From Chitinophagia bacterium (lineage in GTDB: Bacteria; Bacteroidota; Bacteroidia; Chitinophagales; Chitinophagaceae), in NCBI GenBank assembly GCA_037131895.1, contig JBAXQE010000010.1, positions 17,778-81,777 of the forward strand: a DNA stretch of 64,000 bases, read 5' to 3'. The notes beneath the pieces were generated by a model that saw nothing but the letters and a program-made list of their open reading frames with translations, had not been told where the DNA came from and ran no database searches. Shown piece by piece: positions 22,272-46,787 of the stretch. How positions within the stretch are numbered: position 1 is the first letter of the stretch; the number at the start of each line of letters is the position of its first letter. The translations under genes and the position numbers were made by a program.

Positions 22272-24479
<2,208 letters not shown>

Positions 24480-30909: not shown

Positions 30910-33360
30910 TTACCTTTTATCCTCTTTTTCTTCCTTTTCAAAGGGGGTAAAGAAGGCGGCTCTTCTAGGAGCGGGTACAGAAGCAGATGCTCCCTTCACA
31001 GCTTTCCAAATTACCTCGGTAAATAGGCGGTCGGGTATTCGATCTTCTTTAGAAAAATCGAATCGCTCACTCATTTGTTGCCAAACATTTTCTACCGAAT
31101 TTTTTTCGTTGATATTTACTTGCAAGGGTTTTTGCGCAAAGGGAGTTGAGTTGGCTGTTGAAGTAAAACATCGCCACATTGGTTCTGCTGCAGCATCGTA
31201 TTGGCTCATCGGTTCTAATCCAAGTATCAGTTCAATGGTTCTTAACATTGAAGAAGTGGTGTACATAGTATGATCAATAAAATGTCTTTTTACCAATCCA
31301 CCGGCAACATACGCAGTACTTCTGTGCGCATCCACATGGTCGGGCCCATCTTGGGCATCATCCTCTAAAATAAAAATGGCGCATTGATTCCATATTTTAC
31401 TTTTACTCAGGTATTCTACAAACATGCCAATTGCTAAATCATTATCGGCCACATGCGCAAATGGGGTTGGGCGACCTTTGCTCAGTCCTTCTGTATGATC
31501 ATTTATAATTCGTAGGGTACTTAGTCTAGGCACAGCATTTATCGCCAATAGTGAATCGAAATCTCTTTTCCATTGTCCTACACGGGTTGTATCCCGAACG
31601 CTTTGATCCCAACTGGTAAAATAAGGGCAAAAATGATCTTTTAGAACTGGAATATTGGGTTTGTAATCATCGGCAAATTCGCCATAAGTGCGATAACTTA
31701 TCCCTGCCCGTTTACAATAATCCCAGATAAATCCTTTTTTATTGTTGGCAATCGCCCGGTTCCCTTCGGCATCATAATCGCCCCCTCTTCCACCATAACT
31801 GGTTACCCAGGTTTTTTCAAGATAGTCATTCGAATAAGCACCCAAGCTCCAGTTATGCCCGTCTGCACTCACTTCTCCATCTACATAAAAATTATCCAAT
31901 AGTACAAATTCACGGGAAAGAGCGTGCTGATTCGGGGTAACTTTTTCGCCAAAAAGGCAAAGGCTGGTATCACCATTTCCTTCGGGCATATCTCCTAAAA
32001 CTTGATCGTAGGTTCGGTTTTCTTTTACAATATAAAATACATATTGAATAGGAGATGGGTTGCCCAGTTTCATGGGAATCGGATTGCCTGCTTCTCCAGA
32101 TGCCTGGGTTTCCTTGGTTTTATTATAGGGGGTATTTCGGTAAACCGCCTGAGTAAATATCTTTAACTGACTGGGTTGTGGAATAGGAATGATACTCAAT
32201 GTTCCTTTAAATAACCCGCCAATATATTGTACTTCCTTGGGTTGGGTGGTATCGCCTTTTTGAAATGAGAGTTGAATATTTGTGTTAACAGGATTAGGAC
32301 CATAAGGATTCGCACGCGAGGTAAATCCTTTTCCGTTTGCTACAAACAATTCTTTTCCCACTACCCGAACACAGGTAGGATACCATCCGGTAGGGATAAA
32401 GCCTTTAGAAATACTGCTGCCCAGCACACTAACATCATACACCGATAAACAATTGTTATCAGCATTCGCGATAAACAGGGTTTTGGCATCAGAACTCAGG
32501 GCAACACTATTGGTAGTTGAACCTCCGGGAGCATCCGGATATAGTGCCGTATTCAATGTTTCAATTACGGAATATTTTTTCAAATCGATTACCGATACAC
32601 TGTTGTCATTAGCATTTGCCACGTATAATATATTGCCATTGGGCGACAAGGTAATGTCGTTAGGATTACTGCCTACTGCTATCTGATGGGTTATACTTTT
32701 CGATTGTGTGTTGAATACAACAATGGATGCACTCCCCCAAGAACTAATGTATACTTCGTTTTTGATAGGTGAAACTACAATCGTGTAAGCTTCTGCAGGC
32801 AGAGATACTTTTTTTAAAATTTGTTGGGTAGATAAATCTATCAAATACAACGAATTGTTTTCTTTGGTTACGGCATATAAAATATTAGTACGATGGTCGA
32901 TGTTCATACCAGCAATTGATATTCTTTCGGGCCAAGACTTGCCAATTACGATGCTATCCGAAAAAACCAACTTGTTGTCTTTAACGGCATACCGAATAAT
33001 CCGATTATCATTGCCTCCAGAAACATATAAGTAGTCGTCGTTTTTGCTGAAACACAAGCCCAGCCAGGCTTTGGCAATTTCTATCGAATGTAGAACCTTT
33101 TTATTTTTTATATCAATTAACTGCAAGGTTTGGGTGCTTTGTCCATTATTCGTTACCGCCATATATTTTTTTGAGTGGGCAACTGCGAGGTTCAGTGGTA
33201 AGTCTCCTAATGGCAGGCTGCTTCCTACCGGAGTAAGGTTCCAACCATTGGGTAATCCAATCCTTTTTTCATTCAGTTCCTGAAGAGTTTGGGCATATAT
33301 CTGCACTGCTGATAGTAGCAAAATGATGAACGCGAATACTATTTTTTTCATAACTATCAT
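30910..33360 (-). CDS. Bifunctional YncE beta-propeller / alkaline-phosphatase-superfamily phosphoesterase
   Basis: YVTN repeats, GWYPT, then YIVKENRTYDQVLGD, EVSADGHNW, NDHT, EDDAQDGPDHVDAHRS. Confidence 0.92.
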   Translation of the reverse strand: MIVMKKIVFAFIILLLSAVQIYAQTLQELNEKRIGLPNGWNLTPVGSSLPLGDLPLNLAVAHSKKYMAVTNNGQSTQTLQLIDIKNKKVLHSIEIAKAWLGLCFSKNDDYLYVSGGNDNRIIRYAVKDNKLVFSDSIVIGKSWPERISIAGMNIDHRTNILYAVTKENNSLYLIDLSTQQILKKVSLPAEAYTIVVSPIKNEVYISSWGSASIVVFNTQSKSITHQIAVGSNPNDITLSPNGNILYVANANDNSVSVIDLKKYSVIETLNTALYPDAPGGSTTNSVALSSDAKTLFIANADNNCLSVYDVSVLGSSISKGFIPTGWYPTCVRVVGKELFVANGKGFTSRANPYGPNPVNTNIQLSFQKGDTTQPKEVQYIGGLFKGTLSIIPIPQPSQLKIFTQAVYRNTPYNKTKETQASGEAGNPIPMKLGNPSPIQYVFYIVKENRTYDQVLGDMPEGNGDTSLCLFGEKVTPNQHALSREFVLLDNFYVDGEVSADGHNWSLGAYSNDYLEKTWVTSYGGRGGDYDAEGNRAIANNKKGFIWDYCKRAGISYRTYGEFADDYKPNIPVLKDHFCPYFTSWDQSVRDTTRVGQWKRDFDSLLAINAVPRLSTLRIINDHTEGLSKGRPTPFAHVADNDLAIGMFVEYLSKSKIWNQCAIFILEDDAQDGPDHVDAHRSTAYVAGGLVKRHFIDHTMYTTSSMLRTIELILGLEPMSQYDAAAEPMWRCFTSTANSTPFAQKPLQVNINEKNSVENVWQQMSERFDFSKEDRIPDRLFTEVIWKAVKGASASVPAPRRAAFFTPFEKEEKEDKR

Positions 33361-33364
33361 ATAA

Positions 33365-34492
33365 TTATAAAGTAGATACTACTTCTTCTGCAAAACCGAA
33401 CGAAAGGGTCATACCTGCACCACCCAATCCATTGATTATATAAACTCCCGGCTCGGGTTGTAAAAACAAATCCGTTTCTCCGTTGGTCATTTTAGGATAC
33501 ACTCCATTCCAGGTCTGAATCAATTGCCATTGCTTCGAGTGCATAAAAGTTTGCAAATAATCTAGAATCAGTTGGTTGATGTGCGCACTGTCGAATGGTT
33601 CAAACGTTTTTGCATACTCATGCGAATCGCCCACCGTAAGCTCACCACGATTGTTTTGAGAAACCATCACATGAATGCCAGCGTTTAGGTATTCGGCCAT
33701 TTCCATTTCATAACGTTGTTTTAGTTTTGGAAGGGAAGCGGCTGCTGTAAAACTTTTATAATGAATGAGTGAAAGGCCACCACATACCGAAGTGCCAATG
33801 GTATAACCAGGTTGTTCCGAAACAAACCGAAGCATTTGTAGTTTACATTTCGTTATGGGTAGTTCATTGAAGATTTCAGGAAAAAGGGTTTCAAAATCGG
33901 CTCCATTACATATACAAACAATATCTGCTTTAAATATTTCCTTTCCTGTGCGAACAGAATGGCTGGTTACTTCATTCACTTGCTTACCCCAAATAAATTG
34001 AACGCCTAAAAATTCTTCCAAATAGGCAGCTGCAGTTGCAATGGCTTCCCTAGGATCTACAATCATTTCTGTGGAACTGTACAGTCCTCCCAATAAGCCT
34101 TCCGTTTGTAATCCAGAAAATTTTTGTTGCATTTCGCTTATATTTAATAAAGAAACTGGCCTGTTTTCTTTACCAAATTCGGCTGCTAATTCCTGTAATA
34201 CTTGCCATTCATCGGCATGATACGCGGTATGTAAACTGCCATTTTCTAGATAGGGAAGTCCGGTACTATCTGCTACTTCTTTCCAAATTTGTTTCGATCG
34301 AATTGCACGCTGATACATCTTTCCTGCGGTTTGTCCAATAGGCCAGAGCATCCCAAAATTTCGGATAGAAGCACCTACGGCTTTATCGGTTCTTTCGATA
34401 ACCGTAACTGCATATCCTTTTAAAGACAAGGCACGGGCAGTTGCCAAGCCAACAATTCCGGCTCCAATTACAATTGCTTTAGTTGACTGCAT
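33365..34492 (-). CDS. TIGR03364-family FAD-dependent oxidoreductase (phosphonate-catabolism associated)
   Basis: VIGAGIVGLATA, GASIRNFG, VDPREA, CKLQML, VGDSHEY, GLGGAGMTLSFG. Confidence 0.9.
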   Translation of the reverse strand: MQSTKAIVIGAGIVGLATARALSLKGYAVTVIERTDKAVGASIRNFGMLWPIGQTAGKMYQRAIRSKQIWKEVADSTGLPYLENGSLHTAYHADEWQVLQELAAEFGKENRPVSLLNISEMQQKFSGLQTEGLLGGLYSSTEMIVDPREAIATAAAYLEEFLGVQFIWGKQVNEVTSHSVRTGKEIFKADIVCICNGADFETLFPEIFNELPITKCKLQMLRFVSEQPGYTIGTSVCGGLSLIHYKSFTAAASLPKLKQRYEMEMAEYLNAGIHVMVSQNNRGELTVGDSHEYAKTFEPFDSAHINQLILDYLQTFMHSKQWQLIQTWNGVYPKMTNGETDLFLQPEPGVYIINGLGGAGMTLSFGFAEEVVSTL

Positions 34493-35777
34493 ACTGTTGA
34501 TTTTTAGGAATTAGGTTCAATTTTTTTTTAAAATAAATTAGGGCAGCTATAGTAGCGCATATTCCAATAACTGAAAAAATAATCACTCCATTACTATACA
34601 GGTAAGTCCAGCTATTCGTATTTTTCATAAAGGTTTTTGCAATAATAATAACAACACTGCCCAAATAGCCAAATGAATCTGCTAGGTACATCAGAAATCC
34701 GATATTACCGGGCTGACGAAAAGCTGCAATCAGTCGTTCGAATAAGAGGCAATTGAAGGGGATGTATCCCATATACAAACCCAAACCTACCAAAGTCATC
34801 CACGGGATGGGATTCAGCAAATGCATCACAAAAAGCATTGAACTGATACCGGCAATCAGAAAGCCAACGATAATTAAATAGTGCGTAAGTATAAAAGCGC
34901 GGGTATTGTTTTTGATCAACATCATGCTGCCCATTAATACCAACACCATGAGGGTAATGGGTATTTCTGTTTTTGAAAAAACGGATGGCAGAGAACCATA
35001 TCCCAGTGTTTTCCAAATATCAGCGGCAAAGTTGTCGCGAATATCTCGGAAAATGGTGAGTACGATGTACACAAAAATAAGCAGTACTAGGCCGGCAGCA
35101 TATTTCCCAAAAAAAACTTTTCTTTCCTGCTTATTCATGGGGGATCTTTCAACCCTTAATAGCCTATCTTCTTCGGAGGGGGGAGGGATTTTTTCGAGTA
35201 GCTTAACGAAACAAATCAGGGGGATAATAAACAGCGCTCCTGTGGCAAAAGGTATCCATTTTTCTGAAATTGGAAAAGTTATCCAAAGCCATTTAGCTAC
35301 TGTTTTTACAAAACCAGAAGAAAATATAAAGCTAACAGCCAGGGCAGCTCCAATAAAATCGGTAGCTTTTCTGCCTTCAATATAAGAAAATAAAATACCC
35401 CAGATAATACCTAGCGGAAAGCCATTCAAAAAAAGGAATACAATATTCCAGGGTGCTGGAGTAATGCCAAATAGTAAGAGGGCTATCCAGGAAATTGTAA
35501 CCAATAAAATAATTAAATTGCCCCTGCCGAATTTTCCCAACTCAGCGATAAAGCGGATACCATAGAATTTGCTGATCATGTATCCAAGGGCTTGTGCAAT
35601 AACCAAAGCATCTTTATAAGGTATTCCAAATACATGGCCTTCCTGTTCAAAAGTACCTACTGTAAATGGTTTTCTGAAGGCATACACAGAGGCATAGGTA
35701 AGAAAAGATAATAGGGCGGCATACAATGCAACTCGAGTGGTTGGTTTAGGTAAGTAAGCATTGAGCGTTTCCTTCAT
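34479..35777 (-). CDS. DUF5690-family MFS-like transporter
   Basis: YASVYAFRKPF, GYMISKFYGI, NGFPLG..WG, RDIRDNF, LGLYMGYIPFN..FERL, GFLMYLADSFGYLG; about 12 TM. Confidence 0.85.
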   Translation of the reverse strand: MKETLNAYLPKPTTRVALYAALLSFLTYASVYAFRKPFTVGTFEQEGHVFGIPYKDALVIAQALGYMISKFYGIRFIAELGKFGRGNLIILLVTISWIALLLFGITPAPWNIVFLFLNGFPLGIIWGILFSYIEGRKATDFIGAALAVSFIFSSGFVKTVAKWLWITFPISEKWIPFATGALFIIPLICFVKLLEKIPPPSEEDRLLRVERSPMNKQERKVFFGKYAAGLVLLIFVYIVLTIFRDIRDNFAADIWKTLGYGSLPSVFSKTEIPITLMVLVLMGSMMLIKNNTRAFILTHYLIIVGFLIAGISSMLFVMHLLNPIPWMTLVGLGLYMGYIPFNCLLFERLIAAFRQPGNIGFLMYLADSFGYLGSVVIIIAKTFMKNTNSWTYLYSNGVIIFSVIGICATIAALIYFKKKLNLIPKNQQYAVN

Positions 35778-36352
35778 TAATCTTGGTTTTCCAAGTGTTG
35801 AATGATGCGATTTTCGAAGGGAAGAAGTGCAGGAACCGGAATATCATTTACTTTGGCTTGCTCGTCCCATTTTCTTAATGCTATGTATATCTCCCAATTG
35901 GGATCTGATTCAAATTCTTTGGCTTCCATTTCCGACATAACGCCTCCTTGTAGAATAAGTGTTTGTTTACTCGCATCTGAAAGTTGCTGAAAGTAGTCAG
36001 GAAATCTATAGGTAAGGTATCTTTTGGCAGCCACATGTGAAGCAACCATCTTAACCAGTCTTTCTGAAAATCCCAAGTCTTTTAAATAAGCTGCCCCAAT
36101 TTTTTCATGCGCGTGTACACCATATCCCTCCATCGATTTTGTAGGGAGTATGTGTTCACATAAATGACCTATATCATGTAAAAAAGCAGCCAAAATTACT
36201 TCTTCATCGTATCCTTGATCAATGGCCAATTGGGCAGATTGGCACATGTGTTCAATTTGAGAAACATTTTCACCAATATAATCTTCTTTGCCAAATTGTT
36301 CAAATAATGAAATGATCGTTCTTGCGTGCTCTTTAGCTAAATCTGTATTCAT
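35777..36352 (-). CDS. phnZ: PhnZ-type HD-domain phosphonate dioxygenase
   Basis: VSQIEHMCQSA, AAFLHDIGHL, HEKIGA, SHVAAKRYL, LSDASKQTLILQGG.M, LRKWDEQAK. Confidence 0.88.
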   Translation of the reverse strand: MNTDLAKEHARTIISLFEQFGKEDYIGENVSQIEHMCQSAQLAIDQGYDEEVILAAFLHDIGHLCEHILPTKSMEGYGVHAHEKIGAAYLKDLGFSERLVKMVASHVAAKRYLTYRFPDYFQQLSDASKQTLILQGGVMSEMEAKEFESDPNWEIYIALRKWDEQAKVNDIPVPALLPFENRIIQHLENQD

Positions 36353-37450
36353 TTATTTGTTTTTTATTATAGATTCGATTGGATCGGCAACTGGATGATT
36401 GGCTGTAAAATTCAGGCCCAGTAATTTTGCGAAAGTAGCAGCCAGTTGTTTTTGATAAAGCTGGATAGCATCTTTTCTTTCTCCGGCAGGTGCAGTATCT
36501 GGCCCCATAATGGCAACCCAAATTTCGCCCGCTTCTGGAATATTTGCACCATGGTTTCTCCAGTTTTCTTTTATCAAATCTCCTCTTCCATGATCGCAAG
36601 TTACAATTAACGTTGTTTTTCCTTTATAGCCAGGTTCTGATTGTACCCAATTCCATAAATCGGCTATCATCTGATCTTGTGCGCCAGCACTCAGTAAATA
36701 TTGATTGTATTGACCTCCATGCGCAAAATCATCGGTTTCGTCAAATGCTATATAAAGTACGCTGGGTCTCTTGGTTTTTAAATATTCTTTTGCAGCAAGA
36801 TACGTAATAACGTCTGGACGAACCCCTATTGGGCGCGGACTTAATCGCTGAAAATCGTTCAGTAATTGAAAATTGTTTACCGAAGAACTAAGTGTGTCGT
36901 GGTCGGAATTTACATATAGTCCACTTCTCTCTTTGTTTAAAATATACGGAAAAACATCCCAGGTAGTAAATGCAGCAACTTTATTATTAAATGCTGGTTG
37001 TTGATGGATAAATTCCAGCACATTGGTATTTTTATTCAGTATTTTATTGTTGGAGTTAACCAATGTATCAGGGTATCCGGTAAAAATTTCATTGTAACCC
37101 GGATAGGAAAACTTGTAAGGATTCGCATTATTAACTTTATTTCCAAAGTTTCTGTTTCCTAGTAACTGACCATTATTGGCCATGGTTGACCATAAGAATG
37201 GAAAAATCTTTTTTCTTCTGATGGTTGGGTCCTCATTCCAATATTTTGCAAATGCCGATAAACTATCTTGTGTAAATCTTTTGTTGGATAAAAGAGCCTT
37301 ATCCGCCCCAGTGAACACTTCCTGCCAACGCATTCCATCTAAAGTTACGATAATCAAGTTTTCAGTTTGTTGCTGGGCAGTTGCATGAATGCTAAAAAAG
37401 CTTGTATGTAACCCGAAAAATAGTAATAAAACTTTTACAGATTTTTTCAT
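36353..37450 (-). CDS. Secreted alkaline-phosphatase-superfamily protein
   Basis: Signal peptide; IIVTLDGMRWQE, FSYPGYNE (putative Ser nucleophile), DETDDFAH, VTCDHGRG, WRNHG. Confidence 0.88.
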   Translation of the reverse strand: MKKSVKVLLLFFGLHTSFFSIHATAQQQTENLIIVTLDGMRWQEVFTGADKALLSNKRFTQDSLSAFAKYWNEDPTIRRKKIFPFLWSTMANNGQLLGNRNFGNKVNNANPYKFSYPGYNEIFTGYPDTLVNSNNKILNKNTNVLEFIHQQPAFNNKVAAFTTWDVFPYILNKERSGLYVNSDHDTLSSSVNNFQLLNDFQRLSPRPIGVRPDVITYLAAKEYLKTKRPSVLYIAFDETDDFAHGGQYNQYLLSAGAQDQMIADLWNWVQSEPGYKGKTTLIVTCDHGRGDLIKENWRNHGANIPEAGEIWVAIMGPDTAPAGERKDAIQLYQKQLAATFAKLLGLNFTANHPVADPIESIIKNK

Positions 37451-37464
37451 GTAATTTCTTATAA

Positions 37465-37500
37465 GAAAGAAACGAGGTAATTAATTACCTCGTTTCTTTC
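37465..37500. terminator. Perfect 36-bp palindrome between susD and the downstream enzyme genes (stabiliser or partial terminator)
   Basis: gaaagaaacgaggtaattaattacctcgtttctttc is its own reverse complement. Confidence 0.75.
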
Positions 37501-37535
37501 CTGATTTTATTTAATGTAATTTATATGCTATTCCA

Positions 37536-39110
37536 TTATTGAAGAATCCACATAATCTGAAATATACCATCAGTTCCTGTGTATTGACTTTGTACAGCTG
37601 CTTTTACATTAGCAGAATTGGTAGAATATTCTGAAGATGGATATTGAAAGCGAAGAGGAATCGCATTTCCGTTTCCTACCCCAGCACCTGTTGAGAAAGT
37701 TGGAATCCCCGTTCTTCTCCATTGGTAATAGCCTTCATAACCTGAATTACGTGCTAGAGATAAATACCTTTGGGTAAGAATTTTTGTCAAATCATTCGCA
37801 TCGCCCAACAACTTTACGGAGTTTTGGTTAAAATAATCCGCATAATTAAAAGTGATATTATAATTAACATAGTCGCCTGGGGCTGTTCCTTTTAAGAAAG
37901 AAACTGTGTTTGCACCATCATTTACACCATAAAAAGCAAACATGGCTTTTATTCCATTTTGATACCATGTATTGGCAGTTCCCGTAACCCAACCACGATT
38001 TATTGCTTCGGCTATATTCAAACACATTTCAGGGTATCCAACAATGAATGTGTTTTCTCCAGTAAAACCATCGTAATATCTTTTACGACCAATTGGGGAA
38101 ATGGTAAAAGCATTGATTTGCCCTCCTAAAGTACTCATGTCAGCTCCATTTGCTCCACCAACAAAAGACTTATAAGAAGTATCAGGAAATCCTAAACCAC
38201 GTGCCGGATCGGCTACTTTCATAGCTCTTAAATCATTTAAACTAGAAAGGGTATTTAACCATGTAGCTGCTACACATAAACGAGTTGCATCATTTCCATA
38301 ATTACCTTTATTGTTTGGGTAGTAATTATAAGTTGAGTTATAAACATATTCCCAATTGTCCGATAATGAAGTCATTATTGGATATTTTGAAGGGTTGTTC
38401 ACAACATCTGCAAACTTTTGTTTGATATTTAAATCAGCATCAGCAGATTTTTTACTTAAGTTAATCAAAATACGTAATTTAAAAGTATTCACTACTTTTT
38501 GCCATTGCTTCAAAGATGTTAAAGCATCTTTTGGATCTGAAATTCTTTCTTTATAATAAAAGTCTCCTAACAGTGCATTATTTGAACTGCTGATAAGTGA
38601 AGCCAACTGAGTATTTGCATCTTCTAATAACTGTAAACACTGAACAAAAATTTGTTTTTGGTTATCGTATTTAGGAGTAGGATTGCTAGTACCCTGTAAA
38701 GCTTCAGACATTGGCAAATCTCCCACTTTCATCGTCATATTGTAGAAAATATATGCTTTAAACAACTTGGCTAAAGCTGAATAAGGATTAGAAGCTCCTG
38801 ATGCCTTTACTGCTTCTTTTTCCATTGCATTTATGTCGTTCAATACGTTGTATTGAAGTGATGCACTTCCCGACCAATATTGGTTGTCTCCATAGTAGGT
38901 ATAGGTAGATAAAGTGTATTGCGATCTTTTGTCTTCATCACCCCCAGGGAATACTACTAAATTGTTCTCAATGTTACGTAACAATAAATAGGCCGGAACG
39001 GTAGTCGGCTGGTTATTGTTTACAGCGTAATTGTCAAATGTTTTTGAGCAACTACTTGCAATCATTACTATTACTAATAATAAAGCTGTAATTATATTTG
39101 TCTTTTTCAT
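37536..39110 (-). CDS. susD: SusD/RagB-family nutrient-binding lipoprotein
   Basis: Lipobox ASS-C; GDLPMSEALQG..PKYDNQ; W.K..N..KLR; RRTGIP, IPLRFQYP. Confidence 0.93.
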   Translation of the reverse strand: MKKTNIITALLLVIVMIASSCSKTFDNYAVNNNQPTTVPAYLLLRNIENNLVVFPGGDEDKRSQYTLSTYTYYGDNQYWSGSASLQYNVLNDINAMEKEAVKASGASNPYSALAKLFKAYIFYNMTMKVGDLPMSEALQGTSNPTPKYDNQKQIFVQCLQLLEDANTQLASLISSSNNALLGDFYYKERISDPKDALTSLKQWQKVVNTFKLRILINLSKKSADADLNIKQKFADVVNNPSKYPIMTSLSDNWEYVYNSTYNYYPNNKGNYGNDATRLCVAATWLNTLSSLNDLRAMKVADPARGLGFPDTSYKSFVGGANGADMSTLGGQINAFTISPIGRKRYYDGFTGENTFIVGYPEMCLNIAEAINRGWVTGTANTWYQNGIKAMFAFYGVNDGANTVSFLKGTAPGDYVNYNITFNYADYFNQNSVKLLGDANDLTKILTQRYLSLARNSGYEGYYQWRRTGIPTFSTGAGVGNGNAIPLRFQYPSSEYSTNSANVKAAVQSQYTGTDGIFQIMWILQ

Positions 39111-39147
39111 AAATTGTTTTTTTGTGTTTTCAGTAAGAATGATTCAA

Positions 39148-42100
39148 TTAGAAAACAAAATTTACATTAAACCCATAACTGCGTGTTGTAGGCGTTTGAA
39201 GATCGTATTCTCTGCTATTTCCGCTGTTGTAATTCCGACCTGAATATTGGTCAACATCCATATCTTTAAAACGACTAGGGAAGAAATATAATAGGTTACG
39301 ACCAACAAGGGAAACATCAATTTTGGATATAAATGTCTTCTTGCCTAAAAACTTAGTAGGTACTGAATATGTAATTACTACCTCTCTCAGTTTTGCATAT
39401 GTTTTTTTAACAGAAGTATGTTCAAAATCATTAAAGAAACTACTTACATAGTCTTGAATATAATTAACTACACCTGTATTATTTACATATTTTAAGGCAC
39501 CAGCATTGGTAATTACACCAGTAATTGGATCATAGGTAATTGCAGGGCTGCCCGCAGCCAATTGAACTCCTTCTCCAACATAGGTACCCTTAAAGCCCGG
39601 TACAGCAGAGAAACTGTTTGTAGCAGCATTATATACTACATTTTTTGCTTCAATTGCTCTTGCTGCTCCTACAGCGCCTTCAACAGTAGATATATTCGAT
39701 CCACCCTCTATACCTTTACGCATAACTCTATCCTGAACCATTCCACCAACTTTGCCATCAAATTGGAAAGAGAAGCTAAATTGTTTATAATAAAACTTGT
39801 TATAAATCGACCAAGACCAATCTACATCTGCATTACCAACGTACTGGGCTTTGGGTAAATAGATTGGATAACCAGCACTATTGTTTATTACTTGGCCATC
39901 AGTTGTTTTTGCAGTAACACCAGCATATAATTTATCTACTCGATCACCCTGTTGGAATTGGTAATTGGCGAAGTTTGCAGGCAAATCTTTATAAGTCTCT
40001 TTATAAGTAGACCAGTTTAGAATCACATCCCAGTTTAAACCTTGGGCATTTTTCAAAGGAGATCCGTTTACTGTTATTTCAGCACCCTTCACCTGGGTTT
40101 TAATAGCATTAGTTGTAAAACCACTTAAACCGGTTGTTTGAGATAAGGGATAATTTCTAATACCAGGACCAATTATATTGTTAAATAATGTTACGGAAGC
40201 ACCTAAACGATTTTTTATAAACCGAACGTCAAATCCATATTCTAAACTGCTGGTTTCAGATGATTTTATATTAGGATCTAGAACGGTTGAAGGGGCACTT
40301 GCTCCAGATTGTCCATTATATACAGTTCCAATAGAATAAGCTGGATTTGCTAAAGAATAAGAAGGACCTCCATAGGCAGAAACATAAGGTGATCCATAAC
40401 CTATAGGATAACCAGCTGGTCCGATGTAAGGAGAAGTACTAGGTGCTTTTGCTTGTGCATAAGAAGCTCTAACCTTCAAAAAGCTGATTGATGAAGGTAA
40501 TTTTAAATAATCTGATAATACACTAGCTCCTGAAAATGATGGATAGAAATAGGTATTATTATTTAACAACAAAGTAGAATTTTTGTCTGCACGTCCGGTG
40601 GCAGTTAAAGAAAAATATTTATTAAAATCTACATTAATTGAATAATAAGCACTCAATACCAACATTTTTGAATTGAAATTGTAGGCTCTAACAGGATTTA
40701 ATGAATTAGAAAATGAATATAAGCCCGGTACGTTCAGATAATCGGTAGTTACAAAGCTTGATCTATATTCAAAATTTCTTGCATTAACACCTCCTAAAAC
40801 ATCATAGGTAATCCCACCTTTCAACTTGTTATTATATTTTACAAATGCCTCAACGTTATTATCGAATAAAGAACGTTGATCTTCTCTGTAATCACCTCTA
40901 TTCAACTCCCTTCCATAAGGATGCGCTGAGTATGGCATTTTTTCAGTTCTTAAAACGTCATTTGTTGACAAATTGGTTCTTAAAGTGGCTTCTAAATGCT
41001 TATTGGGAGTATAAGTTAATGAAACGTTACCAGTGATATCATTTTTGGTATGTCCTCTTAACCATTCATAACTTACAAAATAAGGATTGTGGTACCGCTG
41101 ATATTCGGCGAAAATTGATTGAACACCTTCTTTACCTGGCTGCCAATAATTTTTCATATCATCAATATTCCAATCCGCACCTGTCCAAACAGTAACAGTA
41201 TAGATAACGCTGTTTGGTCCATAAACTACATCAGGAATGTTAGGAGAGAATTGGCGATTGTAATTTAAGGTACCTTCAATTTTCAACTTGCTGCTTAAAT
41301 TATAGCTAGCATTAATATTGAAATTAATGGTATTTAATTTGGTATTCGGAATGATACCTTTTTGGTTCGTGTGGGTTAACGACATACGGATACTTGAACG
41401 ATCCGTTGCAGATGAAAAACTAAGATTATTTGTGGTTAATAAACCTGGACGAATAAAGCGCTTTAAATTGTCAACGCCTCTAGCGACATAAGGAGTTGCT
41501 TTTCTAACTCCAGTTACAGGGTCAATTGGACTATCATACTGAGGAATTAATTGCCCATTTAAGGCAGGTCCCCAAACATCATAATCTCCATCATTTAATC
41601 CACCTCCCTTTCCATCTCCAAAAATATAAGTAGAGTAATCACCCCCTCCATATAAAGCTTGTGTTTTTGGAAGAGCAATAAATCCTTTGTTTACTTGCGT
41701 GCTAGAATTAAACTCAATGGTATAGCCCTTGTCATTTTTTTTACCTCTTTTGGTAGTAATTAGAATGGCTCCATTCTGAGCACGGCTTCCATAAATAGCA
41801 GTTGCTGCAAGACCTTTCAATATGGTATAGGATTCAATATCATCTGGACTAAGATTCCAAGTATCCGATGTAATGGGTATACCATCTACTACATATAAAC
41901 TAATGTTATATCCACGAAATGACACATTTGGAGAAGCTAGCATCTCTTGGTTGATAGCAACATCAAGACCAGCAACTTTACCTACTAAGCTGTTTACTGG
42001 ATTTACTTCTCTTGCTTTTACTAAATCAGATCCTTTCACCTCTTGAACTGAATACCCCAATTTCTTGGTTTCTTTTTTTACTCCTAATGAAGTTACTACA

Positions 42101-42426
42101 ACTTCATTTAAATTTTCAGCTACTCTTTCTAATTTAACTGAAATAAATGAACCATTGGCAACAACTTTCTGACTGTTGTAACCAACAATAGAAACTGTGA
42201 TAGTGCTGCTACTTTTAACACCATCCAATTGAAATTCACCTGCGTTATTAGTTTTTGCATTCAAATTTTGGCCAGCAACAACTACACTAGCCATTTCAAT
42301 TGGTTTGCCGGTTTCGGCATCTACTACTTTTCCCTTTACCTGAACATTCTGTGAAAAGGCGGTTAGGCCAATACACATAAATAGGAGGGTAGAGAATACC
42401 CATGTTAGTTTTGATTGCTTGCCCAT
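39148..42426 (-). CDS. susC: SusC/RagA-family TonB-dependent transporter
   Basis: N-terminal extension, EVVVTSLG, YVVDGIP, DDIESYTILKG..ATAIYGSRAQNGAILITTK; C-terminal PTTRSYGFNVNFVF. Confidence 0.97.
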   Translation of the reverse strand: MGKQSKLTWVFSTLLFMCIGLTAFSQNVQVKGKVVDAETGKPIEMASVVVAGQNLNAKTNNAGEFQLDGVKSSSTITVSIVGYNSQKVVANGSFISVKLERVAENLNEVVVTSLGVKKETKKLGYSVQEVKGSDLVKAREVNPVNSLVGKVAGLDVAINQEMLASPNVSFRGYNISLYVVDGIPITSDTWNLSPDDIESYTILKGLAATAIYGSRAQNGAILITTKRGKKNDKGYTIEFNSSTQVNKGFIALPKTQALYGGGDYSTYIFGDGKGGGLNDGDYDVWGPALNGQLIPQYDSPIDPVTGVRKATPYVARGVDNLKRFIRPGLLTTNNLSFSSATDRSSIRMSLTHTNQKGIIPNTKLNTINFNINASYNLSSKLKIEGTLNYNRQFSPNIPDVVYGPNSVIYTVTVWTGADWNIDDMKNYWQPGKEGVQSIFAEYQRYHNPYFVSYEWLRGHTKNDITGNVSLTYTPNKHLEATLRTNLSTNDVLRTEKMPYSAHPYGRELNRGDYREDQRSLFDNNVEAFVKYNNKLKGGITYDVLGGVNARNFEYRSSFVTTDYLNVPGLYSFSNSLNPVRAYNFNSKMLVLSAYYSINVDFNKYFSLTATGRADKNSTLLLNNNTYFYPSFSGASVLSDYLKLPSSISFLKVRASYAQAKAPSTSPYIGPAGYPIGYGSPYVSAYGGPSYSLANPAYSIGTVYNGQSGASAPSTVLDPNIKSSETSSLEYGFDVRFIKNRLGASVTLFNNIIGPGIRNYPLSQTTGLSGFTTNAIKTQVKGAEITVNGSPLKNAQGLNWDVILNWSTYKETYKDLPANFANYQFQQGDRVDKLYAGVTAKTTDGQVINNSAGYPIYLPKAQYVGNADVDWSWSIYNKFYYKQFSFSFQFDGKVGGMVQDRVMRKGIEGGSNISTVEGAVGAARAIEAKNVVYNAATNSFSAVPGFKGTYVGEGVQLAAGSPAITYDPITGVITNAGALKYVNNTGVVNYIQDYVSSFFNDFEHTSVKKTYAKLREVVITYSVPTKFLGKKTFISKIDVSLVGRNLLYFFPSRFKDMDVDQYSGRNYNSGNSREYDLQTPTTRSYGFNVNFVF

Positions 42427-42440
42427 AATTTTTTAATTAA

Positions 42441-42530
42441 TTAGGTGACAAAACTATTGACAACCCTTTAACATATTGTTTAACAAATATGATGATAGCG
42501 TTATGCAATTGTTACCGCAATGTAAACATG
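42441..42530 (-). promoter_or_regulatory. 11-12-bp periodic direct repeats upstream of susC (Pho-box-like)
   Basis: Minus strand: tttac-gtaac-ataac at 11-bp period, then TGTTAAA/TGTTAAA/TGTCAAT/TGTCACC at 12/11/12-bp period. Confidence 0.4.
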
Positions 42531-42594: not shown

Positions 42595-43638
42595 TTATAT
42601 GCCAGTTGCAAGCTGAGAGAAGTTTTCCTGATAATTTGCAGATTTACTTAAGGCATAACCCTTTTCTACTACCAATCGAATCAACTGTTCAGTTGAATGA
42701 GTAAGGGTCAGGGATTGCGGATGGGGTGCAGATAGCCAATTGGATACATGTTCGTGGAAAGTATGATCCATTTTAAGTAATACAGGTATATTTCTTTTAA
42801 TTAATGCAGCTGCATTGCAAAGCTGCTCATACTGGCCTCTAATTGGAAGCGCCAATAATTTTTTTCCCAGGTAAAGTGTTTCAGCAGGTGTTTCAAATCC
42901 CGCTCCAGTGATAACACCCGTACTTTCTATCATGCTTGTAGTAAATGCTGCATTATTCACTGGAAAGTAAGAACAGTTTCCTTCGGTATAGGAAGATTTT
43001 ACAAGGGGTGAAAATATTTCGAAACGAATGCCATCCATTTTTTTAAGTTCTTTCTGTATTTCCTGCAAGCCGTAATGCGGCAAGTAAACAGTTATATGGC
43101 CTTTGTCAACTGGGTTGGCTTGTAAAATCTGTTCTTTAATAATAGGATTATAGATATTATTATCATACGAATCGAAGTGCAATCCAACATATTCCTGTGC
43201 CCAACCATAATACCGCAATATCATTTCGCCAAACCTGTCTTTTTTTTCTGGACGTGGGGTAAGCGTACTCTGAAAGCTTGCCTGATGTCCAAAACCAATA
43301 CTCGCTTTACCACTTAATTTACAAGCTAATGAAGTAATGCTTTCAAAGTCATTAATTACTAAGTCATAGTTGTTTACTGGTAAATTCCTTGCTTCTTTTA
43401 TTGCTTTACCTATTTGTAGTTCTTTGGCAATTTTCCAATAATCTAATTTCCCCATGGGTGCATAAAACAAGCTCAAACCCTTGCTACGAAAACGGATTGG
43501 TAAGTCAACTGGAAGATGGCAGTTACTGCCACTTAAGAAAACATCTACTTCGCCATATTTTTTCAAGTAAGGAAGTATTTCTTTCGCCCTTGCGATGTGT
43601 CCATTTCCAGTAGCCTGAACAGCGTATAAAATTTTCAT
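42595..43638 (-). CDS. Glycosyltransferase, MJ1255/VC2487 (TIGR00661-like) family
   Basis: MKILYAVQATGNGHIARA, VINDFE, GHQA, ITGAGFETPAETLYLGK, GQYEQLCNA. Confidence 0.9.
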   Translation of the reverse strand: MKILYAVQATGNGHIARAKEILPYLKKYGEVDVFLSGSNCHLPVDLPIRFRSKGLSLFYAPMGKLDYWKIAKELQIGKAIKEARNLPVNNYDLVINDFESITSLACKLSGKASIGFGHQASFQSTLTPRPEKKDRFGEMILRYYGWAQEYVGLHFDSYDNNIYNPIIKEQILQANPVDKGHITVYLPHYGLQEIQKELKKMDGIRFEIFSPLVKSSYTEGNCSYFPVNNAAFTTSMIESTGVITGAGFETPAETLYLGKKLLALPIRGQYEQLCNAAALIKRNIPVLLKMDHTFHEHVSNWLSAPHPQSLTLTHSTEQLIRLVVEKGYALSKSANYQENFSQLATGI

Positions 43639-43643
43639 AAGAA

Positions 43644-44528
43644 CTATTTTACAGAAGTAGCATTCAATATTAATTGTTCAGCTAACAGATCTTCGATGGA
43701 TAATGCTTTTCGTATAGGTACCACAGGAGTTTTTTGAGTGCTGGCTTTTTGATTTTGTTCATCGTATTGATAAATAGTCCATGCACAATTGTCGTATTCC
43801 AAAGCCGTTAGGTTTTCTATCCAGTCGCCACTATTTAGATACACTACAGATCCTTTGTCTGTTTTAACAATACGATGTTGAGGCTGATGGATGTGTCCAC
43901 AAATCACATACTCATATCCATTCTCTATGGCTAATTCCGCAGCGGTTTGTTCAAAATTTCCGATCCAAGAAACCGCTTTTTTTACTCCATTTTTCACCTT
44001 TTTACTCAAACTCATCTTTTCCCTTCCTACTAATTGGAGTAAATAATTGATGGAGCGATTGAGTAAAATCAATAAATCGTAGCCATATCCACCGAGTTTC
44101 GCTATAATTTTTGCTGAGCCCTTAGTCGTTCTGTCAAAAACATCTCCATGGAAAATCCAAGTTTTTTTACCATCTAGTTCTAATACCCATTTATCGGTTA
44201 ATTGCAATTGGCCAATCGTTAAGTCGCTATACCTGCGCATAATTTCATCATGATTGCCGGTAATGTAAACTACTTTTGTACCCAAACTAAGCAGACTGAA
44301 AATTTCTTTTATCACCTGCATGTGAGATTGTGGGAAATAGCGCTTATTAAATTGCCAGATATCTATTATATCACCATTTAATACTAAAGTTTCTGGTTGA
44401 ATGCTCCGGAGATATTGAATAAGTTCGGTGGCGTGGCAGCCAAATGTGCCTAGATGTACGTCGCTGATAACAACCAATTCAACGCTTCTTCTACTCATAA
44501 TAAGGGTTTGCCAAAATTGAAACTGCAT
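43644..44528 (-). CDS. Metallophosphoesterase of the UDP-2,3-diacylglucosamine hydrolase / PlcP-like family
   Basis: ISDVHLGT, NGDIIDIW, GNHDE, HGDVFD, ICGHIHQP, YLNSGDWIENLTALEY. Confidence 0.9.
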   Translation of the reverse strand: MQFQFWQTLIMSRRSVELVVISDVHLGTFGCHATELIQYLRSIQPETLVLNGDIIDIWQFNKRYFPQSHMQVIKEIFSLLSLGTKVVYITGNHDEIMRRYSDLTIGQLQLTDKWVLELDGKKTWIFHGDVFDRTTKGSAKIIAKLGGYGYDLLILLNRSINYLLQLVGREKMSLSKKVKNGVKKAVSWIGNFEQTAAELAIENGYEYVICGHIHQPQHRIVKTDKGSVVYLNSGDWIENLTALEYDNCAWTIYQYDEQNQKASTQKTPVVPIRKALSIEDLLAEQLILNATSVK

Positions 44529-44646
44529 TGTTATCTTAGCTTTACGAGAATATTAACCTATCGTAAATTTTACTTTAACAAATTGTAAACAAATAGGTTA
44601 TTTATACGATTTAAGGCTATTCTAAGTTAATTATCAATTAAATTAT

Positions 44647-45999
44647 ATGATAACAGCTGAAGAATTTGGAGGAGATTTTTTGTGGGGCGCTGGCATCTCT
44701 GCACCTCAAAATGAAGGAGCTGCTTTGGAGGATGGGAGAGGACTATCCGTGTGGGATGTATTTTCTCGCAGGGTAGCCGTTATTCGGGGAGGTACCAAGC
44801 CAACGGTTACCAGTGATTTTTATCATCGATATAAAGAGGATCTGTTACTAGCGAAGGCGCTGGGCTTCTCTGCCTTTCGGTTTTCAATTTCATGGAGTAG
44901 GATTTTACCTGCCGGAACTGGTAAAATAAACCAAGCTGGACTAAAATTTTACCATGCTGTTATAGATGAGTGCTTATTGTTAGGACTTACGCCCGTGGTA
45001 ACATTGTATCATTGGGATTTGCCACAGGCTTTGCAAAAGGAAGGTGGGTGGGCGAATCATCATATAATAAAATGGTTTACACGGTATGTAAAAATATGTG
45101 TGCAGGAATTTACACCTAAAGTGCAACATTGGATCATCATTAATGAGCCATTGGCCTTTACTTCTTTGGGTTATATGACTGGTTTACATGCTCCTGGTAA
45201 AATTAGTGTGCAATCATTCTATTTGGCTGCCCACCATACAGCCCTTTGCACTGCAGAAGCCTCACGCCTTATTCGCCAGATTAATTCCAATGCAATTATA
45301 GGCAGCAGTTTCTCATTTAGTGAAACACATGCACACCGAAATCAGCCTGCCGATTTGCGTGCAGCCGAAAAGTCTGATTTAATACTTAACAGGTTTTTTT
45401 TAGAGCCAGCCTTGGGTATGGGATTTCCTATGATGGATGGATTTCCGGTAATAGAGAAATTTCATTTATTTAACCGTAGTTGGCGTTTTAAGGAAGCTAT
45501 GAAATGTGATTTGGATTTTGTTGGATTTCAAAACTATTTTCCGGTAACAGTAAGGCATAATCCACTAGTGCCCTATGTTGGTACTTCAGAAGTGAGTGCG
45601 AAAAGTCGTAAGGTTCCGCATACTGCGTTGGGGTGGGAAATTAATGCCGCCAGTTGTTACCGGATGTTGAGGAGAGTGGCAGATTATCCAGGCGTGAAAA
45701 AAATTATCGTAACCGAAGGCGGCTGTGCCGAAAAGGAAACGCTGCATCCCGGTAAAGTGGTCGACCCCCTGCGGATAAAGTATTTTCAGCAATACCTTCA
45801 AGCCGTTTTACAAGCTAAAAAAGAAGGGGTGCCCATTGATGGGTATTTTGTATGGACGCTCACCGACAATTTTGAATGGGCTTTCGGTTTCACTGCCCGT
45901 TTTGGTTTGGTTCGTGTGGATTTTGAAACTCAGTTACGAACCATCAAAGATTCTGGGTATTGGTTTAGAAATTTTTTAAGTGGCACCGGGGATCGTTAA
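44647..45999 (+). CDS. Glycoside hydrolase family 1 beta-glucosidase
   Basis: QNEGA, DFYHRY, RFSISWSR, TLYHWDLP, INEP (acid/base), VTEGG (nucleophile), WTLTDNFEWAFG..RFGL. Confidence 0.95.
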   Translation: MITAEEFGGDFLWGAGISAPQNEGAALEDGRGLSVWDVFSRRVAVIRGGTKPTVTSDFYHRYKEDLLLAKALGFSAFRFSISWSRILPAGTGKINQAGLKFYHAVIDECLLLGLTPVVTLYHWDLPQALQKEGGWANHHIIKWFTRYVKICVQEFTPKVQHWIIINEPLAFTSLGYMTGLHAPGKISVQSFYLAAHHTALCTAEASRLIRQINSNAIIGSSFSFSETHAHRNQPADLRAAEKSDLILNRFFLEPALGMGFPMMDGFPVIEKFHLFNRSWRFKEAMKCDLDFVGFQNYFPVTVRHNPLVPYVGTSEVSAKSRKVPHTALGWEINAASCYRMLRRVADYPGVKKIIVTEGGCAEKETLHPGKVVDPLRIKYFQQYLQAVLQAKKEGVPIDGYFVWTLTDNFEWAFGFTARFGLVRVDFETQLRTIKDSGYWFRNFLSGTGDR

Positions 46000-46787
46000 A
46001 ATTGTTCTGCAACTGTAACCAATTGTTTTTGAGTTTTTTTAACTGCCAACTTCTCTTTTTTATGTATGCTCGCTAAAGCAATTGCCATTGCTTGCCTACT
46101 GTTTAGTGGGGACTTATCCATATGCTCTACCTCTTCGAGCCGGTTAATGATAGTGCAGCATTCATGCCAGTCGCCGATATTTTTCTCCAGTTTACTAATT
46201 GCATGGATTTTTTTCTGATTAGGAAGCCGGTCTTTATCAAGCCAATTGGTTGCATATATCCATTTCTTGCAAAGTTTCCTTATCTCATGCCAGTCTTTCT
46301 GTTTTGCTTTTTTGAGTCCTTTTTTAAGGGAGGCAGATAATTGCATAAAATACTGTTCCGCTAAAATATTATGGGTTTTGTTGGCCAAACTCTCAGCCTT
46401 TTTCATTTGTTTGGTATAGGCATTGAAATGCTTTTGCAGAAAAGCTTGTGTTTGGTTTGCTTGTTGGAGTATATCTGCCTCTGTACAACCGAGGGTTGCA
46501 TCCAATTGTACATTTATTTTTTGTAGCCATTGATTGATCAACTGCATTTCTCTCCATTCTCCGGCTTGTTGAAATAGTTCTCTGGTAACATTGGGTAATT
46601 TTCCTATAGACCCTTTTCCATAAATCGATTGAAGAAAGGAGAATATAGCTTTGATTCTTTTCATCTGTACCCGCAAATCATGCAAATTAGATACAGAGCC
46701 CACCTGAGCCGTGTCCATCCAAGAGTTAAAAAGGGATAGGGTGGTTTGGCGGAAATAAGTATGAAAATTTCCTTTCATACCAAACAA
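45996..46787 (-). CDS. CHAD-domain (polyphosphate-binding) protein
   Basis: LHDLRVQMKRIK, WHEIRKLCKKWIY, IGDWHE; very Lys/Arg-rich. Confidence 0.82.
   Translation of the reverse strand: MFGMKGNFHTYFRQTTLSLFNSWMDTAQVGSVSNLHDLRVQMKRIKAIFSFLQSIYGKGSIGKLPNVTRELFQQAGEWREMQLINQWLQKINVQLDATLGCTEADILQQANQTQAFLQKHFNAYTKQMKKAESLANKTHNILAEQYFMQLSASLKKGLKKAKQKDWHEIRKLCKKWIYATNWLDKDRLPNQKKIHAISKLEKNIGDWHECCTIINRLEEVEHMDKSPLNSRQAMAIALASIHKKEKLAVKKTQKQLVTVAEQF

Follow-up and report, generated by a model that had tools for sequence, protein, structure and literature searches.

Layout of the operon

The window analyzed here, a stretch of 64,000 nucleotides on contig C10 in the genome (2.88 Mb, completeness 99.5%) of a freshwater Chitinophagaceae bacterium whose nearest records are lake metagenome-assembled genomes, carries a seven-gene operon on the minus strand (30910-42426) that probably serves the acquisition of natural aminophosphonates. 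Genes were called from a map of open reading frames (ORFs) and from Pfam and NCBIfam scans of the window proteins. The first gene, susC (39148-42426), encodes a 1092-aa SusC/RagA-type TonB-dependent outer-membrane transporter with Plug and CarboxypepD_reg domains (TIGR04056, 414 bits against a cut-off of 368), and the second, susD (37536-39110), encodes a 524-aa SusD-like surface lipoprotein (PF12771, 1e-53) with the lipoprotein signal MKKTNIITALLLVIVMIASSC, presumably the lid that captures the ligand. These are followed by the gene for an exported diesterase (36353-37450), a member of a divergent subfamily of the alkaline phosphatase (AP) superfamily that resembles nucleotide pyrophosphatase/phosphodiesterase (NPP) enzymes and matches PF01663 weakly (33 bits), and by phnZ (35777-36352), encoding a PhnZ-like HD-domain di-iron oxygenase. 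Further downstream are a gene for a DUF5690 protein (34479-35777; PF18943, 1.6e-162), a predicted inner-membrane permease with a major facilitator superfamily (MFS) fold, and pbfD (33365-34492), encoding a flavin adenine dinucleotide (FAD) amine oxidase of family TIGR03364. The last gene (30910-33360) encodes an exported protein in which a YncE-like beta-propeller is fused to a PF04185 phosphoesterase of the phospholipase C/acid phosphatase family.

The intergenic gaps are 37, 85, 0, -1, -14 and 4 bp, counted from susC to the last gene, and the tightly packed minus-strand operon without a glycoside hydrolase that an earlier note on this DNA had described was confirmed, with every gene it named in place. 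The propeller-phosphoesterase gene, which starts beyond the boundary that the earlier note had set at 33365, is counted in the operon, with 30910 as its end, because only 4 bp separate it from pbfD. Its orthologues (71-75% identity) hold the same position in related loci L013-L021 and L038. Signal peptides of the ordinary type were predicted on the diesterase and on the propeller fusion and one of the lipoprotein type on SusD, and none was predicted on PhnZ or PbfD.

No glycoside hydrolase was found within the operon by the Pfam and NCBIfam scans, so that the pairing of SusCD with carbohydrate-active enzymes (CAZymes) by which a polysaccharide utilization locus (PUL) is recognized is missing; the sole glycoside hydrolase nearby is a divergent GH1 (44647-45999), two genes upstream. 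What is present is a SusCD-like pair co-localized with phosphoesterases and an organophosphorus transporter, the arrangement by which a phosphate utilization system (Pus) locus is recognized. The earlier view of a SusCD-led locus for organophosphorus and phosphonate acquisition, rather than a glycan PUL, holds.

Related loci in the Chitinophagaceae

Species-representative genomes were scanned with DUF5690, which gave 335 relatives, and the best 80 loci (L011-L090), all from Chitinophagaceae, were analyzed after annotation by BLASTP with the window proteins. The modal architecture is SusC-SusD-(diesterase)-PhnZ-PhnX-like-DUF5690-PbfD-(propeller-phosphoesterase), where the PhnX-like genes of the clusters encode haloacid dehalogenase (HAD) proteins related to TIGR03351 or TIGR01422. 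Two cultured strains, Sediminibacterium soli WSJ-3 (L085) and Ginsengibacter hankyongi BR5-29 (L080), have the full locus. Among the 64 related loci with enough flank for gene content to be counted, 44 carry PhnZ, a PhnX-like gene and PbfD, eight carry a PhnX-like gene and PbfD, seven carry PbfD only and three carry PhnZ and PbfD, as does the window. A SusCD pair precedes DUF5690/PbfD in approximately 50 of the 58 loci that extend far enough upstream, irrespective of the type of SusCD. A conserved hidden partner gene was not found: the 170 unassigned neighbouring ORFs of the 80 loci fell into 108 clusters, the largest of which has nine members and represents a regulator with an XRE-type helix-turn-helix (HTH) and a cupin domain.

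The operon of L011 is nearly identical to that of the window (DUF5690 99%, PbfD 97%, flanks 80-91% nucleotide identity). No alignment between the two was possible over window positions 38041-40862, in the 3' part of susC and the 5' part of susD, and the proteins are 57% (SusC) and 48% (SusD) identical. From this sequence pattern, the SusCD cassette appears to have been swapped by recombination between close relatives.

The flavoprotein PbfD

The TIGR03364 protein of the window scores 425.7 bits against a curated cut-off of 285.1. Compared with the reference sequences provided in the supplement of PMC10590968, it is 40% identical over its full length (368 residues) to PbfD2 of Mariniblastus fucicola and 28% identical to PbfD1. 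Both PbfD1 and PbfD2 oxidize N-methyl-2-aminoethylphosphonate (N-methyl-AEP), and PbfD2 also oxidizes 2-aminoethylphosphonate (AEP), to phosphonoacetaldehyde and methylamine or ammonia, with O2 as the acceptor (PMC10590968). An older description of the TIGR03364 family, quoted in the same paper, guessed 1-hydroxy-AEP as the substrate. The window protein is thus predicted to be a PbfD that converts N-methyl-AEP and AEP to phosphonoacetaldehyde.

This assignment bears on the proposal in the earlier note that the flavoprotein and PhnZ form a two-enzyme route that may bypass PhnY. Phosphonoacetaldehyde has no 1-hydroxyl group, which PhnZ requires, and therefore cannot be a PhnZ substrate; PbfD and PhnZ are not simply chainable, and the proposal is not supported. 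Moreover, the seven relatives that have PbfD without PhnZ or PhnX in cis indicate that PbfD is not dependent on PhnZ. A gene for an enzyme predicted to consume phosphonoacetaldehyde (PhnX or PhnY-PhnA) is found in cis in 52 of the 64 related loci, and none is found beside pbfD in the window. The PbfD reaction yields H2O2. A gene for a KatG-type catalase-peroxidase is found at 22272-24476, approximately 9 kb from the locus.

PhnZ and the search for a hydroxylase

PhnZ of the window is 45% identical to the crystallized PhnZ (PDB 4MLM, E 7.6e-44) and scores 208.1 bits on TIGR03276, marginally below the curated cut-off of 214.6; the same protein scores 149 bits on the TmpB model and 125 bits on the PhnZ1 model. 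All six Fe ligands (His34, His58, Asp59, His80, His104 and Asp161 in 4MLM numbering) are kept, as are the residues that bind the 2-amino group, Tyr24 and Glu27 of 4MLM, which correspond to Y25 and E28 within a conserved DYIGE motif. Since the Fe ligands and the Tyr/Glu pair are kept, the window protein looks like an (R)-1-hydroxy-2-AEP oxygenase and not like a TmpB- or PhnZ1-type enzyme, and it is predicted to cleave (R)-1-hydroxy-2-aminoethylphosphonate (HAEP) to glycine and phosphate.

In the canonical pathway the hydroxylated substrate is supplied by a dioxygenase, and the earlier note had named a phnY-type gene elsewhere in the genome as a finding that would count against its proposal. In a search of the whole genome, no TauD family gene was found. 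Four PF05721 (PhyH) proteins are encoded (C1:46951, C11:56420, C2:118445 and C7:116129), the best of which scores 60 bits on the methylphosphonate hydroxylase model against a cut-off of 500; the PDB entries closest to them are leucine and ectoine hydroxylases, no phosphonate genes are found near any of the four, and no PhyH-like ORF is found among the 3581 ORFs of 109 related loci. As candidates for a hidden PhnY*, these proteins were rejected as generic, unlinked and far below the cut-offs. Phosphonatase and C-P lyase partners were also sought: PhnJ, PhnW and PhnA are not found over cut-off in the whole genome, which extends to the genome the earlier observation that phnW, phnA and C-P lyase are missing at the locus. 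A PhnA-like match at C2:112456-113520 was rejected, as it is one of two NPP-type diesterases in a second Pus-like SusCD locus; in this locus (C2:106147-114887; L119:147-8887), two NPP-type phosphodiesterases (408 and 406 aa) are encoded upstream of another SusC/SusD pair. The genome also has no phosphoenolpyruvate mutase, which implies that the phosphonates come from outside.

A native source of hydroxylated substrate is consistent with the distribution of PbfA, an (R)-HAEP ammonia-lyase and the other known enzyme for R-HAEP. PbfA (689 and 668 bits on NF049939) replaces PhnZ in four loci and the two are found together in none of 54 (hypergeometric P ~0.003, uncorrected for relatedness). Clusters with pbfD, phnX and phnZ but without phnW or phnY* have been tabulated for many phyla, including the cluster of PbfD2 itself (PMC10590968, Table S1), and phnZ in such clusters has been read as an alternative route for natural (R)-HAEP (supplement of PMC10590968). 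If PhnZ takes native (R)-1-hydroxy-AEP, a PhnY* hydroxylase is not needed. Given that the locus has no PhnY*-type partner, that the amino binders are kept and that PbfA stands in the place of PhnZ in four loci, the suggestion in the earlier note of a natively hydroxylated substrate is probably right.

A phnX-like gene outside the operon

The lack of phnX in the operon represents a minority, derived state of a common locus, as in 44 of the 64 loci phnZ and DUF5690 are separated by a PhnX-like gene; the in-operon copy has been lost in this lineage. In the window and its near-identical relatives L011 and L012, phnZ and the DUF5690 gene overlap by one base, indicating that the deletion was clean, and phnX is also missing from the operon in L011, L012, L032, L071, L046, L040 and L078. 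Hence the description of the locus as lacking its usual partners was correct for phnX in the operon, but the lack is specific to the lineage and does not extend to the genome, which keeps a copy on contig C9.

This copy (C9:99184-99864) is the single TIGR03351 PhnX-like protein over cut-off in the genome (225 bits against 219), and its PDB relatives are phosphonoacetaldehyde hydrolases only. The DxAGT motif, the cap Lys, Arg148 and Asp174/178 are all retained in it, and 60 PhnX-like sequences of the related loci show no variation at D8, A10, G11, T12, K49, R148, D174 or D178. A tree built from 80 sequences places the C9 copy in a clade of 16 (support 0.99) in which every other member comes from a cluster; the copies of L053 and L069, two loci with SusC/SusD proteins 74-79% identical to those of the window, are sister to it (support 0.86). 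In genomes of the same genus, a PhnX-like gene of the C9 type is always found inside SusCD-DUF5690-PbfD-PhnZ clusters. Located 130 bp downstream of the C9 phnX is a gene for a 378-aa paralogue of the operon diesterase (43% identity, E 1e-94), and the pair (C9:99184-101130; L010:6185-8131) makes this phnX part of a small satellite that belongs to the functional system of the operon. The relative G005 has the same phnX-diesterase pair (contig C62), with its phnX-like gene broken by a TGA.

A second DUF5690 gene in the genome is found in a module that reads TonB receptor, Zn alcohol dehydrogenase (ADH) and DUF5690 (C11:71092-76192; L151:7092-12192) and that carries no phnX. The dehydrogenase scores 315 bits on TIGR03366, the "phosphonate catabolism associated alcohol dehydrogenase" (cut-off 328). 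PbfG enzymes of the PF00107 type oxidize 2-hydroxyethylphosphonate to phosphonoacetaldehyde (PMC13576164), and judging from its genes the C11 module is a candidate unit for 2-hydroxyethylphosphonate uptake and oxidation. One homologous module reads ADH-HAD-DUF5690 and lies beside pstSCAB, and another reads ADH-DUF5690 with no HAD gene. Since the C11 module and the operon are predicted to make the same aldehyde and both are without phnX, economy favours one stand-alone hydrolase shared by the two, and the C9 copy probably also serves the C11 module.

Candidate uptake proteins

Neither DUF5690 nor the diesterase had a useful match when the PDB was searched by sequence, and their folds were assessed by structure prediction followed by a fold search of the PDB. 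The DUF5690 model (predicted local distance difference test, pLDDT, 85) has a 12-helix MFS fold, and its top matches are G6PT/SLC37A4 (template modelling, TM, scores 0.60-0.67), with other MFS transporters next. G6PT/SLC37A4 proteins are organophosphate:Pi antiporters (OPA). Relatives of DUF5690 are annotated by JGI as MFS permeases. The family was found in 35 of 401 sampled Bacteroidota species, and in 16 of 20 loci drawn from different families its neighbours include PbfD, PhnX-like, PhnZ or PbfA. With the phosphonate-associated ADH counted too, such a neighbour was seen in nearly all of the loci examined. The predicted fold, closest to G6PT/OPA, and the adjoining phosphonate genes in the 16 Bacteroidota loci make DUF5690 a plausible inner-membrane phosphonate importer, as the earlier note had supposed.

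In the diesterase, the NPP-type metal and nucleophile positions D38, S115, D240, H244, D286, H287 and H300 are invariant or nearly so across 37 homologues. Its model (pLDDT 91) matches NPP, sulfatase and LtaS structures with TM scores of approximately 0.5. The possibility that the enzyme is a PhnA-like phosphonoacetate hydrolase was rejected, as the fold matches are generic for the AP superfamily (TM ~0.5) and the protein is exported. A reasonable guess is that the diesterase frees phosphonate from phosphonate monoesters or phosphodiesters. Both esterases of the operon bear signal peptides, and the trimming of esterified phosphonates by exported phosphatases, also proposed in the earlier note, is plausible.

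Regulatory elements and neighbouring genes

A direct repeat of the form TAAC-N7-TAAC with an 11-bp period, TAACAATTGCATAAC, is located on the minus strand at 42500-42514, approximately 88 nt upstream of the susC start, and represents a candidate operator. The repeat recurs ahead of susC in 21 of 55 related loci, whereas chance would give approximately 0.009 per 360-nt stretch. Across the genome it is no general motif of the Pho-box-like kind, and other sites of the form TAACA-N6-TAAC precede unrelated genes (M16 peptidase, acyltransferase and TetR). A Pho-box-like TGTCA-N6/7-TGTCA near the susC start occurs just 2-3 times genome-wide. The XRE-HTH/cupin regulator is encoded directly upstream of susC in 13 of the 80 loci (L013-L015, L018-L022, L024, L025, L036, L085 and L088) and has no homologue in the genome of the window. 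Within the operon, the 85 bp that separate susD from the diesterase gene contain a perfect 16-bp palindromic hairpin (37465-37500), possibly an attenuator inside the operon or an element that stabilizes the RNA.

Adjoining the operon upstream, on the same strand, are genes for a PlcP/LpxH-like metallophosphoesterase and a glycosyltransferase, which together with the divergent GH1 occupy 42595-45999. This trio also accompanies the phosphonate loci of L065, L081, L089 and L104, an arrangement that hints at a linked module for the remodelling of lipids under phosphorus stress. A CHAD-domain protein is encoded near the locus at 45996-46787; the CHAD family is associated with polyphosphate granules.

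Proposed function and alternative explanations

The reading that we consider probable is that the operon is a Pus-type SusCD locus for natural aminophosphonates with two parallel cytoplasmic branches, one of which uses a PhnX supplied in trans. The SusD-like lipoprotein would capture a phosphonate or a phosphonate ester, for example the head group of a phosphonolipid or phosphonoglycan, and the SusC-like TonB-dependent barrel would bring this ligand in. In the periplasm, the NPP-like diesterase and the propeller-phosphoesterase fusion would release the free aminophosphonate, which the DUF5690 MFS permease would then move over the inner membrane. In the cytoplasm, PbfD would deaminate N-methyl-AEP or AEP oxidatively to phosphonoacetaldehyde and a PhnX-type hydrolase, here provided from C9, would split this product into acetaldehyde and phosphate, while PhnZ, independently, would convert native (R)-1-hydroxy-AEP to glycine and phosphate; these three steps have been shown for homologues. 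A more tentative extension, possible at best, is that SusCD, the NPP-like diesterase and DUF5690 make up a dedicated two-membrane import line for esterified aminophosphonates, in which both the diesterase family, as a class of phosphonate-monoester hydrolases, and DUF5690, as a family of phosphonate permeases, would be new, and in which one phnX-diesterase pair would serve two modules (PbfD and ADH), each with its own TonB receptor and DUF5690.

Several points weigh against the proposed function. What SusCD binds, what the two esterases cleave and what DUF5690 carries are deduced from genomic context, and for this organism the model is built from sequence and structure prediction. The TIGR03351 PhnX-like enzymes form a clade apart from the biochemically studied PhnX proteins, and that they hydrolyze phosphonoacetaldehyde is an assumption. 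No clear regulatory motif is common to the operon and the C9 gene, the nearest being a one-mismatch TAAC-N7-TAAG upstream of the latter, and motif searches of the genome did not define a Pho-box-like operator for phosphate starvation. In addition, PhnZ scores slightly under its NCBIfam cut-off.

Among the alternatives, a locus that is mainly a Pus for phosphoesters such as phospholipid head groups or nucleic acid, with an ordinary organophosphate as the SusCD ligand and the phosphonate genes as passengers, is unlikely, even though generic phosphoesterases make up two of the seven operon genes, the neighbouring genes include a PlcP-like metallophosphoesterase-glycosyltransferase pair and one for a CHAD protein, the characterized PusCD1/2 import inositol-phosphate head groups and the SusCD cassette is exchangeable between near-identical operons. 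What speaks against such a reading is that three of the five operon genes other than SusCD are phosphonate-linked, that SusCD stands ahead of DUF5690/PbfD in most related loci irrespective of its type and that the diesterase family also travels with a stand-alone phnX. The canonical oxidative pathway, in which an unlinked PhyH dioxygenase would act as PhnY* and hydroxylate AEP for PhnZ, is quite improbable: the genome does encode four PF05721 proteins, one with a weak match to the methylphosphonate hydroxylase model (60 bits), but all four are far under the phosphonate-hydroxylase cut-offs, the best scoring 60 against 500 bits, their closest structures are hydroxylases of leucine and ectoine, none lies near phosphonate genes, and neither a PhyH-like ORF in the related loci nor a TauD gene in the genome is available to take this role.

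A new two-enzyme route in which PbfD and PhnZ act in sequence, replacing PhnY*/PhnZ and making PhnX unnecessary, is very improbable. In one version, PbfD would make 1-hydroxy-2-oxoethylphosphonate from 1-hydroxy-AEP or its N-methyl derivative and PhnZ would cleave the product, a scheme in line with the older speculation on the substrate of TIGR03364 proteins, with the presence of pbfD and phnZ in one operon and with the absence of phnX from that operon here and in the seven relatives named above. The characterized PbfD product nevertheless lacks the 1-hydroxyl that PhnZ needs, the window PhnZ keeps the residues for a free 2-amino group, PhnX stands beside PhnZ in most related loci, an intact PhnX-like gene of the cluster type is kept in the genome, and PbfD is found in seven relatives that have neither PhnZ nor PhnX in cis.

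Relation to known systems

The locus is close to the pbfD-phnX-phnZ clusters of Zangelmi et al. (2023, PMC10590968), with which it shares a TIGR03364 flavoprotein and PhnZ without phnW or phnY*; unlike these clusters, it has its phnX on another contig and includes SusC/SusD at its head, exported esterases and a DUF5690 permease. The Flavobacterium PusCD systems (Lidbury et al. 2021, PMC8115612; Connolly et al. 2026, bioRxiv 10.64898/2026.09.03.749221) likewise combine a SusCD-like pair, phosphoesterases and an inner-membrane organophosphorus transporter, with no CAZymes. Flavobacterium PusCD1/2 take inositol-phosphate lipid head groups, while the window system is from Chitinophagaceae and is known here from its genes. 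Pus loci with phosphonate-degrading genes have been mentioned, without experimental characterization, in both reports (PMC8115612; bioRxiv 10.64898/2026.09.03.749221). The oxidative AEP pathway formed by PhnY* and PhnZ (McSorley et al. 2012; 4MLM, 4MLN) has a PhnZ that is 45% identical to that of the window, with the iron ligands and Tyr/Glu in common, but its PhnY*-type 2-oxoglutarate dioxygenase has no counterpart in the locus, in the 109 related loci or, convincingly, in the genome.

The C11 module, which is outside the window, resembles the PbfG/TIGR03366 clusters of Piazza et al. (2026, PMC13576164) in its Zn-ADH (315 bits), and its relatives show the order ADH-HAD(PhnX)-DUF5690; it differs in being without phnX and in being led by a plain TonB receptor, with no SusD. 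DUF5690 parallels AepP, a GlpT-like MFS permease for 2-AEP (Murphy et al. 2021, PMC8316502), as a protein of the organophosphate:Pi antiporter kind encoded beside AEP catabolic genes, but it is a Pfam family of its own, for which no match to solved MFS structures was detected at the sequence level. The earlier note had rated the locus as a candidate for an undescribed pathway. As pbfD, phnX and phnZ without phnW or phnY* are already tabulated (PMC10590968) and phosphonate Pus loci are already in print, the locus is instead a variant of a type noted before, is not a new pathway and reveals no new C-P bond chemistry. What is specific to the window is the split regulon with its phnX-diesterase satellite.

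On this reading, modules can share a downstream hydrolase in trans, and across the related loci PhnZ and PbfA seem able to substitute for each other in the handling of 1-hydroxy-AEP. A sizeable fraction of the dissolved organic phosphorus in waters and soils consists of aminophosphonates. The locus family points to TonB-powered SusCD uptake of these compounds followed by transport through an MFS permease, which would widen the cargo of SusCD systems past glycans and inositol phosphates.

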